Origin: Candidatus Terraquivivens tengchongensis
GTDB taxonomy: Archaea; Thermoproteota; Nitrososphaeria_A; Caldarchaeales; Wolframiiraptoraceae
NCBI GenBank assembly: GCA_023261845.1
Contig: JALNJZ010000005.1
Span: forward strand, 1 to 64,000
Direction of reading: 5' to 3'
Length of the DNA: 64,000 bases
Part shown: positions 7,383 to 35,220 of the stretch, in pieces
How the letters are laid out: every line of letters begins with the position of its first letter
Numbering within the stretch: position 1 is the stretch's first letter
The notes under the pieces: model-generated
The model's database searches: none
What the model was told of the DNA's origin: nothing
The model's input: only the letters and a program-made list of their open reading frames with translations
Translations under genes and position numbers: made by a program

Positions 7383-7471
7383 GGGCCCGTAGCCTAGAAT
7401 GGACAGGGCGTCGAATAACACGCGTATGCCTGCGGAGCCGGAGGTCGCGGGTTCAAGTCCCGCCGGGCCCA
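7383..7471 (+). tRNA. tRNA-Arg(GCG) with a 14-nt intron (7414-7427) at position 29/30
   Basis: Acceptor GGGCCCG/CGGGCCC, D arm GCCT/GGGC, T arm GCGGG-TTCAAGT-CCCGC; anticodon stem TCG|GC/GCCGG is restored by removing AATAACACGCGTAT; anticodon GCG at 7432-7434; CCA not encoded. Confidence 0.93.
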
Positions 7472-26909: not shown

Positions 26910-27242
26910 TTAAAGGATGAGCTTCCTGAAGAAACAGGTCCTGTTTCCAGTGTGGCATGCAACACCTTCCTGCTCAACTACGTAAATTAACGAGTCGTTA
27001 TCACAATCTACCAGAACTTCAAGAACTCTTTGCACGTTGCCGGACGTTTCTCCCTTCATCCATATCTTATTTCTTGATCTGCTAAAGTAATGCGCATAAC
27101 CAGATGCGAGTGTCTTCTCGACCGCTTCCTTATTAGCATAAGCAAGCATCAACACCTCACCCGTCCTCCTCTCGTAGGCTACTACGGGAATAAGTCCTCC
27201 GGATTTGTCAAAATCCAACTCATCGATTCTTACATACTTCAT
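26910..27242 (-). CDS. hisI: Phosphoribosyl-AMP cyclohydrolase (monofunctional)
   Basis: [26 protein letters not shown]. Confidence 0.95.
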
Positions 27243-29326: not shown

Positions 29327-29904
29327 AGTGTTCCCTTCACGCTAGTCTGCCTTCTTCTTTCATCGAATGAAGAAGCTTGTTTCAAGGACATAGCCAGCGC
29401 TTTTGTGGCAGCCTCAACTTTGTGGTGATCATTTTCGCCATAAAGTACCAGCACATGCATCGTAGCCTCGAGTGAAAACGCAAGCGACCTAAAAAAGTGG
29501 TATGCATCCTCTTTTCTGATGTCCTCTATTTGCGAGCCCTCTAGCTTGAGCTTCAAGACGGCGTACGGTCTTTTGACTAAGTCAATGCTCACCATCGCTA
29601 GGGCATCATCCATAGGTATGATGGCATAACCGAATCTTTTGATGCCTTCTCTGTTGCCTAATGCTTTTGAGATGGCAGAGCCAAGCGTTATGGCCACATC
29701 TTCGACTGTATGGTGCGTGAGGTCACCTGTCGCCTCCACAACTAAGTTCATCGCGCTATGCATTGCCAAGGTTGCTATCATATGGTCGAGGAATTTTATA
29801 CCGGTCCTGGATTTTGCAGTACCTTGCCCATCCAATAACACGTCTACGAAGATATTTGACTCCAACGTCCTTCTTTCTATCGTTGCCTTTCTTTCCGTAC
29901 TTAT
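29323..29904 (-). CDS. hisB: Imidazoleglycerol-phosphate dehydratase (start extended to ATA 29904)
   Basis: FLDHM, HHTVED, PMDDA, NDHHKVEA; the conserved N-terminal RKATIERRTLE lies upstream of the track's TTG 29865. Confidence 0.93.
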   Translation of the reverse strand: MSTERKATIERRTLESNIFVDVLLDGQGTAKSRTGIKFLDHMIATLAMHSAMNLVVEATGDLTHHTVEDVAITLGSAISKALGNREGIKRFGYAIIPMDDALAMVSIDLVKRPYAVLKLKLEGSQIEDIRKEDAYHFFRSLAFSLEATMHVLVLYGENDHHKVEAATKALAMSLKQASSFDERRRQTSVKGTL

Positions 29905-31079
29905 CCCTCCTTAGCATGCGTGAAGAGATATGGAAGCTCGTTTACAGTAGGCATTATGACGTCTGCGCCTTTTTTCATAAAGTACTCAATCTTTAATTTT
30001 GGTACATTGCTACTCGCATATACACCAGCGAATATGAACACATCCATTGCGTTTTTAGCATTTTTCACCATTAGCAAGTCTTCTGCTGAGTCGCCAACGT
30101 ATAGAACATTTCCCTTCGGCTGCAAGTAGGACACTGCCTTGAATAAAGAATATGGGTCCGGTTTTCCCACCTTATGAGCCTCCGGACCTATAAGCCGGAC
30201 CTCATCGGCCAAGAATACTGCCGCCTTTTGATTGAAGTATTTGAACAGTTTTCCTAAGACCCTATTCGCCGACCATTTATCCCTACCGGAGGCAATCGTT
30301 AAGTTGGAATGGCCGACTATCTTCTGCAGCTTTATCAGAACTTCCTCCTCAATCAATGGCTTCTCATTCTGGAAAAGGCCTGAGCCGTTAAAGAAAGATG
30401 GCTTCGTGTTGTATACTGCTTCTACACCTTCAGCACCGTAGAAAAGTTCATCAAAGACGGTTACCAAGAGACTTTCTCCGAAGTTACCAGGATAGCCTAG
30501 AAACCTCCTAAATTGGCGGAGCTCGTTTACGAGACCTTTTTCGGCCGCGATCATATCCATTATAGTGTCGATGTCGTACCGGTCAAGATAATCTTTAGTC
30601 TTCATAACTTTACCAAGAATTTCCACGAATTCCTCCTGATGTTCTTGAAGCGATACTTTATACCTAGTTCCCTTAAAACTACTTGATAGGATATTTACTG
30701 CATCGGTTAACGACGTACCTGCTTCCAAGTCGCTCATCATATCCAAAAAACGTTTAACACATTCTTTGGGCATATTTAAAAACGTCCACTCACTCAGCAC
30801 ATATGCCGTATCCCAATCGTTATTAAACCCGCCACATATTCTAAGAATCTCAATCTGGGCATCCGTCGTTATCGGCCCAATAATGTCCACGGGCATTATT
30901 GAGAAGATGTACTCCACTGTTTTATGTATGGCCTTGTTGTACGAATTGTTGATGTCTATAAGAACCCCGTCACAATCGAAGATTATTGCATCAACATTTG
31001 CTAAAGATTTTTCAATCCCTTCTTTTATCTTAAGTTGTTGATCGTTGATTTCCAACGTATTATAAACAAATGTGCTCAT
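29901..31079 (-). CDS. HAD-superfamily hydrolase, candidate histidinol-phosphate phosphatase
   Basis: FDCDGVL, GGFNNDWD, KPDP, YVGDSAED; located between hisC and hisB. Confidence 0.8.
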   Translation of the reverse strand: MSTFVYNTLEINDQQLKIKEGIEKSLANVDAIIFDCDGVLIDINNSYNKAIHKTVEYIFSIMPVDIIGPITTDAQIEILRICGGFNNDWDTAYVLSEWTFLNMPKECVKRFLDMMSDLEAGTSLTDAVNILSSSFKGTRYKVSLQEHQEEFVEILGKVMKTKDYLDRYDIDTIMDMIAAEKGLVNELRQFRRFLGYPGNFGESLLVTVFDELFYGAEGVEAVYNTKPSFFNGSGLFQNEKPLIEEEVLIKLQKIVGHSNLTIASGRDKWSANRVLGKLFKYFNQKAAVFLADEVRLIGPEAHKVGKPDPYSLFKAVSYLQPKGNVLYVGDSAEDLLMVKNAKNAMDVFIFAGVYASSNVPKLKIEYFMKKGADVIMPTVNELPYLFTHAKEG

Positions 31080-32188: not shown

Positions 32189-33154
32189 TCAACGAGGGAT
32201 GTCCTCTAGCGGGAGTATCAACTGAGGCTCGTGGACGACCAATCCCTGTGCCAACCTTCTTAAGATTGGTAGCAACTTAAGGAATTCTTGTTTATCAACG
32301 ATTGTATTCACGGAGTACCAACCTTTCGCAGATAGCGGGCTTATTGTGGGTTTCTTCAAAGCAGGAAGGTTGTTAAGAAGTTGCTCTAGGTTCTCCTCTT
32401 TCACGTTAACGAATATATGCAATTTCTTTCCGCCATCGATTACGCCCTTCAGCATCGTCATTACGTCAAGCATCTTCTCGCGTTTATCTGGTGTGTTTAA
32501 AGACTTTTTGTTCGCTATCAAAACTGCCGACGATTCAAGTATGACTTCTACCGGCCTTAGGTTGTTTTGTTCAAGGGTTCTGCCGGTCTCAACTACGTCA
32601 ATTATAGCATCCGCATCCTCGGGCGGCTTCGCCTCTGTAGCACCAAAAGACAAGAAGATGCTAACAAAGCGGTTTGTTCCTCTCTTCCACCAAGGCGTTA
32701 TGACAAGAGGCTCCTCATCCTTAAACCATTTCTTGTATACATCGTAGCTCTTTACGTGTCGCGCCGCTATGTTCAAGTACTCAGTGGATATCCTTACGAT
32801 CTTGCCCTCTTTCCAATAACGTTCAAACAACTCAGGTAATGAATTAAAGCCTATGCTTTCAGGAAGCGCTATGACAAGCTTCACCCTGCCGTACTCTAGA
32901 TCCATCAGCACCTCGACGTCCGCGTCGGTTTCACGTATCCAGTCAATACCAGTTATGCCCAAATCCTGAGAACCTTCAGCGACAAACATCGGAATCTCTT
33001 GGGGTCTCAGTATTTTGAGTTCGATTTCTGGATCATCAACCACAGGTCGGTACGTTCTCTCTTGACCACGTAGCCTATACATGGCTTTTTCTAGCAATTC
33101 GAACGTGTTCTTTTCAAGCGAACCTTTTGGTATAGCAAATTTTATCTTGACCAT
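32189..33154 (-). CDS. hisG: ATP phosphoribosyltransferase, long form
   Basis: AIPKGSL, RPQEIP, DLGITG.D, GATEAK, DVVETGRTL, C-terminal regulatory domain. Confidence 0.96.
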   Translation of the reverse strand: MVKIKFAIPKGSLEKNTFELLEKAMYRLRGQERTYRPVVDDPEIELKILRPQEIPMFVAEGSQDLGITGIDWIRETDADVEVLMDLEYGRVKLVIALPESIGFNSLPELFERYWKEGKIVRISTEYLNIAARHVKSYDVYKKWFKDEEPLVITPWWKRGTNRFVSIFLSFGATEAKPPEDADAIIDVVETGRTLEQNNLRPVEVILESSAVLIANKKSLNTPDKREKMLDVMTMLKGVIDGGKKLHIFVNVKEENLEQLLNNLPALKKPTISPLSAKGWYSVNTIVDKQEFLKLLPILRRLAQGLVVHEPQLILPLEDIPR

Positions 33155-33280
33155 ATGATGTCACCACCAACATTTATGTATCGTAGAGTGGGTCTTAGCC
33201 TAGATATAATGCTAAGGACGAACTCAAACGGCAAGATGAACTTGACCAACCTCTTCGGCCAAGACCCTCCCCACACCTGG
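33155..33280 (-). promoter_or_regulatory. Structured 5' leader of the his operon (candidate cis-regulatory RNA)
   Basis: 18-nt imperfect inverted repeat (33183-33200 / 33257-33274) with three G-U-compatible differences on the minus strand, competing local hairpins, and TATA TTTTATATA at 33312-33304. Confidence 0.6.
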
Positions 33281-33363
33281 ACGTGCAAAATACTAGAATC
33301 TAATATATAAAATTTGCTTGTTACAAATTTTGTCATAGATGTTAGCAACGTTGTAAAGAACGC

Positions 33364-35220
33364 TTATCTAAAGCTCGGCCTCTTGGATAACATCCTCGGC
33401 AGGCTGAGCTTTTTATACGGCCTCCCAACATTCTTTGAGTGTATCTCTTTGATTAATTCTTCAAGCGTCATCTGTTTTATACTACCTGACGCTCTGTCTC
33501 TTACGGAAAAGATGTTGGACTCTTTCTCCCTTTTTCCATAAACTATTATGTAGGGAACCCATTCTGTCTCAGCATCCCGAACTTTCTTGTCAACTGTCTC
33601 CAACCTATCATCCACATCGGCCCTTATTTGTTCACTTTCTAACTTTTCGCTCAGTGATACACAATCTTCTATGAACATGTCGGACACAGGTATTAGTCTA
33701 ACTTGCGTTGGCGATAACCAAACCGGTAACATAGGCTTACTACCTTCCTTGTAAACCTTGTAAGCTTTCTCTAATAGAGCGTAGATAACGCGCTCTATGG
33801 CACCGCTTGGTGAACAGTGTAGAATTATCGGGTGCTTCTTGTTTCCAAATTGATCGACGTAGGTTATGTCATAGCGTTCTGCATTCTCAACGTCTATCTG
33901 ATCCGTGGAAAGGGCCGATGCCTTTCTTAGGGTATCAATAAAGTTGAATTCCCATTTCAGAACGAAGTAGAAGAACCTTTCTTCCCACATTTCTACCAAC
34001 GCTGGCTTTCCGAATCTCCTAACCAATTCGGTCACAAATTCCTTGTTGGATTCGTAAAAATCTCTCGTGAACCTAATTGCCATTTCATAGTCGTCCTTGG
34101 TTAAGCCGATGCCTTCTAGAACGTTTATTGATAATTCAAGTCTGCGTAGCATTTCCTCTTTGGCTTGTTGTATATCAGAGCATAATGCATGGACATCGGG
34201 CATAGTAAACGCTCTCAACCTCTTTAAACCGACCAGCTCACCGCTCTTCTCTCTCCTAAAGCTGTATCTCGTTAACTCATAGAGCCTAACAGGAAGCTGT
34301 TTATAGGATATCTGCATGTCGTGCGCCATAAGGAACTGACCAAAACATGCTGCGAACCTTAGGAAAAACTCCTTCTCGTCGGACTTTACTATATATTGTC
34401 TGGCGGGAAACCTGTTCAGGTAACTCTCTAGGCACGGGTGTTTCAGATCATACATTATGGGCGTCTCGATCTCCATACCGCCATACTCAATGACCTTTTC
34501 AGTTACATATTGCTCGATGAGGGATTTTATCAGCCTCCCTTTTGCTGGCCATCTCATATTGCCAAGGTCACTTCCTGGTTCATAATCTGCAATCTCTAAC
34601 TTCTTCATCAAATCCACATGAGGCGGTGTCTGTGATACTACCCTCGACTTTGCCATTTCATATGTTGCGAGCGCTTTTAGATCTTCGTACCCTGAAAAGT
34701 CGAAGGATTCTACTGGAATCAATTCTCCGTTCGGTGTCAGTATGCACCAATATGACCTTATTCTCTCTTCCATGACTAAGGCTTTTGGAACATAAGTGGT
34801 GCTAGCTGCTTCTGGTGTTATTGACCTGAACTGTTCAGCCAATGGATGGCCCTTAACTGACAGGGAAAGGGCCTTAGTCCAACCGAACGGTGAGCTATAA
34901 ACCTCCATTCCTTCCAATTCGCACTTTTTCCTAAAAATGCGAATGATTTCCAAAGCTTTTTCCTGTGTCGCAAGTTTGTTGCTGAGATGGGCATATGGAT
35001 ATATCAGTATGCGCTTATTACCAACCCTTGACGAATATTCCTTCAGCTCACTCACGGCCCTATCTACCATTGTTTCGTCGTCCCCTTCTTCCACAGTCGT
35101 AAGAACCAAGACTATGTCCTCAAACCTCTTACGACCAATCTCTGTCTCTTCGAATACCCTACCTTCCTTCCCCACCGGCTCGTACTCGACAAAGTCGGTA
35201 TGTAATATTAGCAACCTCAT
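33364..35220 (-). CDS. thrS: Threonine--tRNA ligase (archaeal type with DTD-like editing domain)
   Basis: YPYAHLS, PFGW, GHPLAE, LRFAACFGQF, RAFTMPD.H, HCSPSGAIER. Confidence 0.97.
   Translation of the reverse strand: MRLLILHTDFVEYEPVGKEGRVFEETEIGRKRFEDIVLVLTTVEEGDDETMVDRAVSELKEYSSRVGNKRILIYPYAHLSNKLATQEKALEIIRIFRKKCELEGMEVYSSPFGWTKALSLSVKGHPLAEQFRSITPEAASTTYVPKALVMEERIRSYWCILTPNGELIPVESFDFSGYEDLKALATYEMAKSRVVSQTPPHVDLMKKLEIADYEPGSDLGNMRWPAKGRLIKSLIEQYVTEKVIEYGGMEIETPIMYDLKHPCLESYLNRFPARQYIVKSDEKEFFLRFAACFGQFLMAHDMQISYKQLPVRLYELTRYSFRREKSGELVGLKRLRAFTMPDVHALCSDIQQAKEEMLRRLELSINVLEGIGLTKDDYEMAIRFTRDFYESNKEFVTELVRRFGKPALVEMWEERFFYFVLKWEFNFIDTLRKASALSTDQIDVENAERYDITYVDQFGNKKHPIILHCSPSGAIERVIYALLEKAYKVYKEGSKPMLPVWLSPTQVRLIPVSDMFIEDCVSLSEKLESEQIRADVDDRLETVDKKVRDAETEWVPYIIVYGKREKESNIFSVRDRASGSIKQMTLEELIKEIHSKNVGRPYKKLSLPRMLSKRPSFR

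Follow-up and report, generated by a model that had tools for sequence, protein, structure and literature searches.

Amino-acid-sensing leaders are textbook biology in bacteria. The best-known example for histidine, bacterial hisL (the Rfam family His_leader), combines a short open reading frame (ORF) that contains consecutive His codons with a terminator hairpin and a U-run. Control of his genes by RNA attenuators is described for Proteobacteria, and control by T-box riboswitches for Firmicutes and Actinobacteria (PMC9413887). In mycobacteria, leaderless short ORFs with poly-Cys stretches are presented, in the abstract of the study concerned, as cysteine-responsive attenuators (bioRxiv 10.1101/834739). 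Translational frameshifting provides a second group of related systems. Bacterial release factor 2 (RF2) is autoregulated by a +1 frameshift at the site CUU_U, and hungry-codon +1 frameshifting is exemplified by the Ty1 site CUU_AGG_C and by Gallant's starvation experiments, as outlined in the relevant passages of a 2016 review, which leave open the use of natural starvation-induced frameshifting (PMC5009743). In the literature that we searched, which most subscription journals fell outside, we found no description of an amino-acid-sensing leader in archaea, nor one of an archaeal hisG leader, or of an upstream ORF (uORF), frameshift, or cis-element for archaeal his genes.

The leader described here lies in a 64,000-nucleotide stretch of DNA from Candidatus Terraquivivens tengchongensis (contig JALNJZ010000005.1, positions 1 to 64,000), which we call the window. 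All of its features are on the minus strand. The evidence supports the view of this region as the 5' leader of the his operon: it acts in cis, is structured and conserved, and has its own promoter and alternative pairings. The first gene of the operon is hisG (ATP phosphoribosyltransferase, 32189..33154; NCBIfam TIGR00070, E value 3.9e-47, and TIGR03455), followed by hisC, a HAD hydrolase gene, hisB, hisH, hisA, and hisF, and the operon extends to 27239. As read from the sequence, the promoter (33304..33320) consists of a BRE-like element, CAAGCAAA, and then a T/A-rich TATA element. A preliminary description of this DNA had placed the TATA element at 33312 to 33304; it is present, together with the BRE-like CAAGCAAA, and this promoter is kept in all seven congeners, with sequence on its 5' side that is not alignable. 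As the promoters of other genes in the window are 31 to 42 nt from the start codon, a leader length of about 120 nt stands out in this DNA.

Given the TATA spacing of the genes in the window, transcription probably starts near 33281 to 33274. When the end of an RNA contig is also taken into account, the probable 5' end region of the his mRNA becomes 33270..33281. This 420-nt contig, from a metatranscriptome run (X16), covers 32851 to 33270 and crosses the hisG start, so that leader and hisG are joined. Its terminus at 33270 is not a loose end, whereas a contig from a DNA run continues past this point; because it comes from a single study, we regard its end as a weak hint of the mRNA 5' end. 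The same RNA run has no cover over 33276 to 33825, which is not to be read as absence.

Comparisons were made among seven genomes of the genus Ca. Terraquivivens, the genome of the window included, and within a family set of 35 genomes. Leader identity among the congeners is 73 to 83%, similar to that of the flanking genes. Amid this otherwise diverged leader sequence is a 35-nt block that is invariant, even at synonymous positions. The preliminary description interpreted the region as an RNA that switches between two structures, and several of the proposed pairings are real. The long helix (P1) joins a 5' arm (33257..33274), which holds a Shine-Dalgarno (SD)-like GGAGG run (33270 to 33266) and the uORF start discussed below, to a 3' arm (33183..33200). 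These arms pair at 17 of 18 positions, with three G-U pairs, one A.A mismatch, and 78% Watson-Crick pairs, and the G-U pairs are compatible with the mRNA (minus) strand only, both as had been claimed. The 5' arm hardly varies among the seven congeners apart from its 5' side, which has indels of +1, -1, and -2 nt. Changes in the 3' arm are mostly C/U opposite G; G004 shows a single double change, from U-A to C-G, and five of the seven congeners have an A-U pair where the window has its A.A mismatch.

A helix as long as P1 (18 pairs, including a flanking U-G) arose in 1 of 300 dinucleotide shuffles. The minimum free energy (MFE) of the whole leader is ordinary, with a z-score of -1.28 and 21 of 200 shuffles that fold equally well. 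This ordinary folding energy and a leader identity similar to that of flanking genes would fit chance or neutral structure without function, but we consider such an origin very improbable in view of the invariant block in otherwise diverged sequence, the length of P1, and the frame statistics described below, which hold across clades.

Two smaller hairpins compete with or complement P1. Hairpin HP1 (CUUGGCCGA / UUGGUCAAG, loop AGAGG; 33241..33263) carries the uORF start codon in its 5' strand. It exists as first described and is nearly invariant in all seven congeners, the exceptions being a G-C in place of a G-U pair and a single C.C mismatch; it has 9 pairs, of which 7 never vary, and 98.4% of cells are paired. 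It occurs in the MFE structure of two of the seven species and competes with inner P1. Hairpin HP2 (CUUAGC / GCUAAG, with an AU-rich loop; 33194..33216) holds the zero-frame UAG of the congeners in its 5' strand. Its form varies among the congeners, and UAG...CUAGGC is invariant. An extended version of this hairpin had been proposed at 33225 to 33186; part of it falls in sequence that differs between congeners, and only the CUUAGC/GCUAAG core recurs, in some form. The proposed hairpin enclosed by P1, GG(U)CAAG/CUUGCC, is not kept in the congeners. The claim that the two states are mutually exclusive applies to their inner parts only, as the outer 12 pairs of P1 are compatible with both small hairpins, and a three-way junction of outer P1 and both small hairpins is the MFE structure in two of the seven species.

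A covariance model of P1 and HP1 matches 7 of the 35 family genomes, all of one genus. A weak match of the model in a further genome (G028) lies inside a coding region and was dropped, and a metagenome scan for further congeners returned four loci of the genus, one identical to the window. Covariation within the genus is weak: its score was reached by 80 of 500 shuffles, and one pair shows a double change among the seven congeners. The leader is single-copy in its own genome by blastn, with one copy per genome by the covariance model. A MITE or similar repeat was rejected, blastn against the own genome having returned only the self match and two matches of 17 to 19 nt. A cmscan of the window against 4227 Rfam families, with E values up to 10, gave only a chance match to PK-BYV elsewhere in the window and no match to a T-box model; 20 related leaders gave no Rfam match, and no specifier-loop/antiterminator architecture of the T-box type was found in the leader. 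A transcription terminator, flagged by a scan as HP1 followed by UUCAUCUUGC, was also rejected, the longest U-run in the leader being 3. Archaeal termination rules differ from the bacterial criterion of an intrinsic hairpin plus U-run.

The same structural features could be read in terms of a separate small RNA or a 5' stabilizing stem-loop, with hisG transcribed from the AU-rich ATTATAT (33210 to 33204) inside the loop, or of a DNA operator, the imperfect palindrome CTTGGCC-N9-GGTCAAG, bound by a repressor. The two ends of the domain pair with each other, a trait of many stable RNAs, the AU-rich element is about 53 nt before the AUG, and the block is situated at about +10 to +45 of the promoter. 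However, the RNA contig runs unbroken from hisG across the domain, the AU-rich element in the loop does not resemble a TATA element in one congener (G004), and the mismatches of the palindrome are of the G-U type on the sense strand. Neither a small RNA nor an operator explains the frame data given below, and we judge these possibilities to be quite unlikely.

The route by which a switch might act on hisG was proposed to be the linker UUCAUC, serving as an anti-SD. The hisG SD, GGUGA (33161..33165), is 6 nt 5' of the AUG and matches the organism's own 16S 3' end (...GGAUCACCUCCU), and GUUGGUG around it is kept in six of the seven congeners. UCAUC and GGUGA can pair (five pairs, one of them G-U), but the duplex is unremarkable: at -6.0 kcal/mol (37 C), it falls at the 58th percentile of leader windows. 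Low accessibility of the hisG SD and AUG is not predicted throughout, with values of 0.01 to 0.91 for the unpaired AUG at 37 C, and blocking the uORF region produced no change in predicted accessibility of the SD. Nor did we adopt a general rule by which the region of the His codon pairs with the hisG initiation region. Percentiles for this duplex range from 0.10 to 0.83 in the genus and are mixed in other clades, about half of which are at or below 0.2, a mixed result that could come from the built-in likeness of UCAY(C) to an anti-SD.

A two-state riboswitch for histidine, a pathway metabolite, tRNA-His, or a protein, acting via the anti-SD linker, would account for a P1 that is longer than chance, for G-U pairs that fit the mRNA strand only, for a block invariant even at synonymous positions, and for the alternative hairpins. 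We nevertheless find it improbable. Neither the window nor the 20 related leaders have an Rfam match, the fold was found in one genus only, covariation is within the range of shuffles, the UUCAUC-SD duplex is ordinary, and constraints placed on the leader leave the SD/AUG accessibility unchanged. Furthermore, the elements that appear to be common across phyla are a start codon, a motif with 3-nt periodicity, and reading frames rather than helices. The ligand-binding, anti-SD form of the original proposal is therefore not sustained.

Judged by its pattern of conservation, the invariant block instead appears to behave as a translated uORF with a His codon, associated with a +1 frame that is kept far beyond the genus. 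The zero-frame uORF (33224..33262) reads M A E E V G Q V H L A V, with UUG at 33262 as its start and 11 more sense codons after it, and ends with UGA at 33226 to 33224; its His codon, at 33238 to 33236, is within the invariant block. In the six other congeners the zero frame runs on to an invariant UAG aligned with 33214 to 33212. The UUG is the sole in-frame start common to all seven, and the stretch from UUG to UAG is free of indels in every one of them. Indels in the genus are of 1, 2, and 1 nt on the 5' side of the UUG and of 6, 3, and 3 nt in the +1 stretch (six of seven), with none inside the uORF. Five of the seven congeners have one His codon in the uORF, and two have two adjacent His codons. 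The earlier statement that there is no AUG-initiated His-rich leader peptide is literally true, and none that is His-rich was found in the ORF list or in the frames of the congeners, but it passes over an in-frame UUG ORF with a His codon that spans the invariant block. The GGAGG of the uORF precedes the UUG by only 3 nt, an aligned spacing some 6 nt shorter than that of the hisG SD, and the UUG lies inside HP1 and P1. The uORF as a whole overlaps exclusive pairings, beginning within HP1 and the 5' arm of P1 and stopping within HP2, with HP1 and HP2 opposed to inner P1. The peptide resembles those of other clades, e.g., ..VEVGYLH.. and MVEVNLLH.

Related uORFs, with a start 4 to 9 codons before an NUU-CAY pair, precede hisG in many other archaeal lineages. 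We searched for a pattern consisting of a start 5 to 9 codons before [VILF]-His, with GG at codon -4 or -3 and with no more than 16 codons before a stop is reached. This pattern was found 5' of hisG in 13 of 25 clade representatives, the same data on which it was defined, versus 0.31 expected from shuffles and 1 of 25 for the reverse complement. In a later sample of one genome per genus, the pattern occurred in 6 of 35, versus 0.44 expected and 1 of 35 for the reverse complement, one of the six being a contig seen before, and an M-R-D-x-V-H variant was present in a further 9 of the same 35 genera. The codon five places before His is ATG, GTG, or TTG in all 11 such leaders, which is the signature of an initiation codon.

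The proposed +1 shift site is GUU CAU C (33235..33241), with the Val codon in the P site and the His codon in the A site. The codon before His at 59 sites, from all leaders examined, is GUU (28), CUU (21), AUU (7), UUC (2), or UUU (1). No other Val, Leu, or Ile codon occurs there, and a UU-ending codon is present at 57 of the 59 sites, which were selected for CAY. We infer that NUU is prone to shifting and that CAY is slowly decoded at this site. The +1 frame (33142..33237) contains 31 sense codons, from AUC at 33237 to UAA at 33144 to 33142, and traverses HP2, the P1 3' arm, the hisG SD, and the hisG AUG. In six of the seven congeners it stays open for 30 to 32 codons and has its stop at +10, counted from the A of the hisG start codon; in the seventh (G001), a 1-nt deletion in the P1 3' arm shifts the end to -19. 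The zero frame ends 57 to 72 nt 5' of hisG in the congeners, and its stop comes 3 codons after His in the window, 7 in six congeners, and 0 to 17 in other clades.

Taken by itself, the genus gives an open +1 frame that is no more than marginally unusual, as all seven species are open in 248 of 5000 trials of a column-permutation null (P about 0.05). Inspection of part of the same data had suggested both the uORF pattern and the +1 frame as the one to choose; 21 clade representatives independent of those that formed the idea were used to count how often the frame reaches the hisG start (-20 to +12). It does so in 20 of the 21, versus 5.44 expected (1000 shuffles each; P, 2e-13), and the +2 control frame does so in 3 of 21, versus 4.29 expected. 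In the one failing leader (L039) the +1 frame ends at -44. The N-terminal codons of hisG supply stops at +5 and +10, so it is the long open stretch that is informative and not the exact end point. For 47 metagenome loci processed by an automated chain, hisG was reached in 30, versus 11 for the +2 control. A small protein encoded by the block in another frame was also considered, but the 68-aa ORF concerned (33142..33348) starts 5' of the TATA element and was reread as the +1 frame. A genome-wide scan of the own genome (G000) for other genes with a long alternative frame ending on their start was abandoned as too unspecific, with 100 loose candidates. A hisS-like gene in the same genome has a TATA element about 30 nt before its start and no uORF.

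A second His site occurs in 14 of 15 leaders examined, one of the 14 with a masked N run, and in 12 of 13 assessable leaders the second NUU-CAY follows exactly 19 nt on, in the +1 frame. A stop follows the second site after 0 to 4 codons, or after 9 codons in the leader L056 and 17 in L047. Were a +1 shift to occur there too, it would open 30 to 55 codons ending at -10 to +11 of the hisG start, or at -21 in the 13th leader. In two clades hisG itself is the +1 frame, without an intervening stop; a +1 fusion of uORF and hisG was rejected as a general rule, as it holds in these two clades only.

Many leaders have a +1-frame stop 1 to 7 codons upstream and no start codon there, so that the frame cannot be entered by ordinary initiation in those leaders. 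Within this genus, the long frame may be entered without a shift, because a UUG is found four codons upstream in the +1 frame in six of the seven congeners, and, near the predicted 5' end, the window (at 33276) and G002 carry a GUG in this same frame (that of G003 is in the +2 frame). An SD-like stimulator at the distance known from RF2 is present in some clades only (GGUGAU one codon before the shift codon). Possible stimulators in the window are GAGGU, 7 nt upstream of the shift site, and HP2/P1 downstream.

Such +1-frame starts, four codons up in six of seven congeners and also in several other clades, bear on the possibility that the uORF is a translated His sensor without frameshifting. 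A pause at His would then remodel P1, HP1, and HP2, in the classical or erm-type manner, or would shield the leader from a termination or decay factor, and the +1 frame, if read, would be read from its own start. The conservation of the uORF and its His codon would be expected, and the four segments of the leader allow the pairings 1:2, 3:4, or 1:4 that bacterial attenuators also have. We think this rather unlikely. It leaves unexplained why the +1 frame is open to the hisG start (20 of 21, versus 3 of 21 for +2) and why that frame has a second His site at +19, and many clades lack a start in it. Moreover, a single codon is a weak stalling signal, the leader has no U-run of 4 or more, and masking the footprint of a stalled ribosome leaves the predicted accessibility of the hisG SD and AUG unchanged.

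Overall, we lean modestly toward a leader that is a ribosome-read sensor, in which a shortage of His-tRNA would cause a +1 shift, the helix would be melted, and hisG translation would be coupled to that of the shifted frame. Transcription would start about 30 to 37 nt after the TATA element, and the uORF would be translated from its UUG up to the single His codon that follows GUU. With His-tRNA plentiful, the ribosome would stay in frame and stop 57 to 72 nt before hisG, after which the 18-pair P1 would re-form. With His-tRNA scarce, the waiting ribosome would slip +1 at GUU-CAU and read 31 new-frame codons, unwinding HP2, the P1 3' arm, and the hisG initiation region. Termination at the UAA, 10 nt inside hisG, would then promote hisG initiation by translational coupling. 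We infer from the sequence the translation of the uORF, the frame shift, its dependence on His-tRNA, and the raised hisG translation brought about by termination over the start. Because SD/AUG accessibility is not consistently low, the dependence of hisG on coupling is only presumed. The role of P1 and HP1 is the least certain part; they may gate uORF initiation or block non-translating ribosomes from hisG. The preliminary description suggested a ligand-, tRNA-, or protein-controlled switch, and its tRNA option was right in spirit, as the likely signal is His-tRNA supply, but this would be read by the ribosome and not by RNA alone.

Beyond the genus, it seems to us an evenly balanced question whether many Thermoproteota, and some lineages labelled Asgard, share a common design. 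This would consist of a mini-ORF with a single hungry His codon, or with a pair in successive frames set 19 nt apart as an AND gate, +1 shifts, and termination-reinitiation at hisG (in two clades, reading straight into hisG), to which Terraquivivens would add the wrap of an 18-pair helix. The same logic may be used in other amino-acid operons.

If this reading is correct, the leader would be the first control of the leader-peptide type described in archaea and a natural case in which hungry-codon frameshifting is itself the sensor. It would also provide a sequence rule for finding similar leaders (a start codon and 4 to 9 codons, then NUU-CAY, then a +1 frame that stops on the start of the gene) and a warning for annotation, as small ORFs that overlap hisG starts may be regulatory read-through frames. 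Should only the translated His-codon uORF in a structured leader hold, it would still be a new and widespread archaeal regulatory element.

The proposed sensor overlaps partially with each of the systems introduced above. With T-box riboswitches on his genes it would share the sensing of tRNA-His charging in the leader of his genes, but those RNAs bind tRNA directly, without translation, and no T-box model matched here. The mycobacterial Cys attenuators are likewise very short ORFs at or near the 5' end of an operon mRNA, in which cognate codons give an amino-acid response; they differ in being bacterial and in their poly-Cys runs, and their abstract reports no frameshift. Like hisL, the archaeal element has a short ORF with a His codon just 5' of hisG that overlaps exclusive pairings, and a translating ribosome would read His-tRNA. 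In contrast to hisL, there is one His codon (two in two congeners, and two frame-shifted sites in other lineages) and no run of them, the leader lacks a U-run terminator and has no cmscan match, and the proposed output is translational, via the +1 frame.

The frameshift systems, as far as the review passages cited describe them, supply the other half of the comparison. As in RF2, there is a short zero frame and a UU-ending codon at the putative shift site (CUU_U there; GUU, CUU, or AUU before C here), followed by a presumably slow codon, the abundance of whose decoder would be the regulated quantity, and some archaeal clades have the SD-like GGUGAU one codon before the shift codon. The codon presumed to be slow here is a sense codon, His, and not UGA, a stimulator is not general, and the product would mostly be a throw-away peptide ending on the start of the regulated gene, except in the two clades with hisG as the +1 frame. 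With Ty1 and the hungry-codon experiments the leader would share a P-site NUU followed by an A-site codon with limiting aminoacyl-tRNA. At the Ty1 site a constitutively rare tRNA fixes the ratio of products, whereas in the archaeal leader a changing supply of His-tRNA would feed back on synthesis.

Upstream of the histidine operon, which occupies the minus strand of the window, lies thrS (35220-33364), and a 209-nt spacer separates it from hisG (33154-32189), the first his gene. Then follow hisC, a HAD-family hydrolase gene, hisB, hisH, hisA, and hisF, to position 27239. The hydrolase (392 amino acids, 29901-31079, minus strand, between hisC and hisB) may provide the histidinol-phosphate phosphatase activity. 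The source genome (1.22 Mb, 99% complete) has a hisG 93-95% identical to hisG of Candidatus Terraquivivens MAGs, a genus named in the Wolframiiraptor paper (PMC9246946), and hot-spring metagenomes contain the window's DNA. Histidine synthesis seems patchy across the family, as hisG was found in 6/6 other genomes of the genus versus 3/28 from the family's four other genera (completeness 59-97%). Elsewhere in the window, the length (89 nt) of a tRNA-Val(CAC) call at 7383-7471 (plus strand, anticodon at position 37) suggests an intron.

All six other genomes of the genus carry a homologous hisG leader, with identity (73-83%) comparable to that of flanking genes. The BRE/TATA element is conserved, and beyond the promoter on its 5' side the sequences cannot be aligned. 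One congener (G005) has an insertion of ~190 nt between thrS and BRE/TATA, with downstream promoter and leader unaltered. Because promoters of other window genes lie 31-42 nt before the start codon, the his mRNA is predicted to start near 33281-33274, and the leader length of ~120 nt is exceptional within the window. In one metatranscriptome run, a 420-nt contig with 3 differences spans 32851-33270 (the 5' part of hisG and the whole leader); it terminates at 33270 without a loose end, and a contig from a DNA run extends beyond this point. The RNA contig fits co-transcription of leader and hisG and is a weak hint, from a single study with possible DNA carry-over.

The preliminary description of this leader proposed a two-state switch controlled by a ligand, tRNA, or protein, with a linker complementary to the Shine-Dalgarno (SD) sequence. 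The long helix P1 has 18-nt arms at 33274-33257 and 33200-33183 on the mRNA strand, paired at 17 of 18 positions (three G-U). A helix this long appeared in 1 of 300 dinucleotide shuffles, and the folding energy of the whole leader is ordinary (z, -1.28). P1 is retained in 7/7 congeners (93% of cells paired versus 33-60% with the partner slid); its variation is chiefly C/U facing G, with a double change in one case, and covariation among the seven did not exceed chance (score equalled in 73-80 of 500 shuffles). Hairpin HP1 (33263-33241) is almost without variation. In minimum free energy folds at 75 C, the outer part of P1 is present in all 7 species, in G001 instead as a looser long-range helix with mismatches, and the folds show, depending on the species, either extended P1 or a three-way junction with HP1 and a small hairpin, HP2 (33216-33194). 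From this retention and alternation we conclude that the structure is real, as proposed, and that the two states amount to local branch migration inside a single domain. Rfam contained no family matching the window leader, which occurs once in its own genome; a P1+HP1 covariance model recovered 7 of 35 family genomes, restricted to the genus, with one copy each. A weak match in a further genome (G028) falls within a coding region and was rejected as an additional element. In another predicted hairpin (33128-33158, minus strand), UAUGGY around the hisG AUG is paired to GCYAUA of codons 7-8, and the Y positions co-vary pair-compatibly among congeners (GGU..GCU or GGC..GCC). In 4/7 species the AUG is predicted to be unpaired at only 0.01-0.06 at 37 C.

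A short upstream open reading frame (uORF) is the more widespread feature. A TATA element is located 60-200 nt upstream of hisG in the three other family genomes that have this gene and in most of the hisG loci retrieved from other archaea; read as codons, these regions share a recurring motif, G-[D/G]-x-[V/I/L]-H. Each occurrence of the motif is contained in a short ORF whose start codon precedes the His codon by 4-9 codons. ATG stands 6 codons before His at 10 loci in 5 clades; examples are MRGASLH-stop and MVEVNLLH-stop, the latter shared by three species that differ at synonymous positions and in the stop codon. In two further families, 11/11 leaders have ATG, GTG, or TTG five codons ahead of His. 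The window uORF (minus strand) encodes M A E E V G Q V H L A V, from UUG at 33262 through a single His codon (CAU, 33238-33236) to UGA at 33226-33224; in the 6 other congeners the zero frame continues to an invariant UAG. The block 33270-33236 (35 nt) is invariant in the genus save two single-species changes, UUG is the sole start codon shared by 7/7 congeners, and indels of 1, 2, and 1 nt occur on its 5' side, with none inside the uORF. At the predicted mRNA 5' end (33272-33276), GUG codons overlap one another and are in frames 0 and +1 in the window; owing to 1-2 nt indels, those aligned are +1 in G002 and +2 in G003, and a leaderless start there, if used, would enter different frames in different species.

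A fixed uORF pattern was found in 13 of 25 clade representatives versus 0.31 expected (reverse strand, 1), and in 6 of 35 genera of a later one-per-genus sample versus 0.44 expected (reverse strand, 1), one of the 6 being a previously seen contig. The variant M-R-D-x-V-H, missed by the pattern, occurs in a further 9 of the 35. The uORF is absent and leaders are short in 14 genera of family f5 and several other groups, and Rfam gave no match among 20 related leaders. Of 59 sites, all selected for CAY, 57 have UU as the last two bases of the codon preceding His, and another synonymous codon never takes its place, which indicates a constraint at the nucleotide level and not on the amino acid.

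In 6/7 congeners, the spacing between the His codon and the hisG AUG differs by multiples of three only, which prompted inspection of the other frames. From the His codon, frame 0 in the congeners stops 57-72 nt upstream of hisG, and in most of them an early stop closes the +2 frame. The +1 frame, which a one-base forward slip at NUU-CAY (GUU-CAU in the window) would enter, is open for 30-32 codons to a shared UAA 10 nt into hisG in 6/7; G001, which carries a 1-nt deletion, has its +1 stop at -19. For the genus taken by itself, the openness is marginal (P about 0.05, column permutation). In other clades, the +1 frame spans 13-50 codons and has its end between -16 and +11 of the hisG start, with one exception (L039, -44). 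Among 21 clade representatives left out when the +1 idea was formed, the +1 frame reaches the hisG start (-20 to +12) in 20 versus 5.44 expected (P = 2e-13), and the +2 frame in 3 versus 4.29 expected. An automated chain run on 47 metagenome loci reached hisG in 30, plus one fusion type, and in 11 with +2 steps. The openness of the long +1 frames is conserved and the encoded peptides are not; many leaders have a +1-frame stop 1-7 codons upstream of the site, without a start codon. Chance, which we regard as highly implausible, leaves these frame data unaccounted for, as does an attenuator working by stalling only, which we consider unlikely. The same data fall outside the riboswitch of the preliminary description and outside an independent sRNA or operator, each of which appears improbable to us.

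In some archaeal hisG leaders (L126-L132, L120-L123, L047, L056, L134, and L137), the hisG start is reached only via two successive +1 steps. A second NUU-CAY site is present in 14 of 15 leaders examined (one of the 14 with a masked N run); in 12 of 13 assessable leaders it follows the first by exactly 19 nt and is in the +1 frame. A stop follows this site by 0-4 codons (9 in L056, 17 in L047); the second +1 step opens 30-55 codons that end at -10 to +11 of the hisG start, or at -21 in the 13th leader. The arrangement looks like an AND gate. In two clades (L049, L060, and L200; L053, L055, L057, and L058), the +1 frame of the uORF is that of hisG itself, uninterrupted by stops. In these fusions, base pairing of the hisG GUG start with CAC, the His codon of the uORF, can form a local hairpin.

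A start codon followed after a few codons by NUU-CAY, together with a zero frame that stops early and a long +1 frame that ends on the hisG start, would be most simply accounted for, as judged from sequence, by regulated +1 frameshifting at a hungry His codon and subsequent translational coupling. Scarcity of His would yield more shifted ribosomes and thus more HisG, which would be the right direction of control, and a second His site would make the response sharper. In the window, a shifted ribosome would unwind HP2, the 3' arm of P1, the SD (33165-33161), and the predicted hairpin over the AUG. Predicted pairing in P1 and HP1 buries the uORF start; our guess is that these helices could restrict uORF loading to a co-transcriptional window or, alternatively, keep non-translating ribosomes from sliding to hisG. 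Weak points of the frameshift reading are the uORF start, a UUG with GGAGG very close, the GUG/UUG codons in the genus that could allow shift-independent entry, the marginal within-genus statistic, and expression support from one RNA contig.

A literature search, mainly at the level of abstracts, returned nothing that describes leaders, uORFs, or frameshift sensors of archaeal his genes. The proposed mechanism, which is easily testable, would bring both leader-peptide control and regulatory +1 frameshifting into archaeal amino-acid regulation. Each is of a known kind, and here they would be combined. The putative shift site has parallels in the release factor 2 site (CUU_U) and in Ty1 (CUU_AGG_C), and the proposed shift at the His codon has one in Gallant's hungry codons (PMC5009743).
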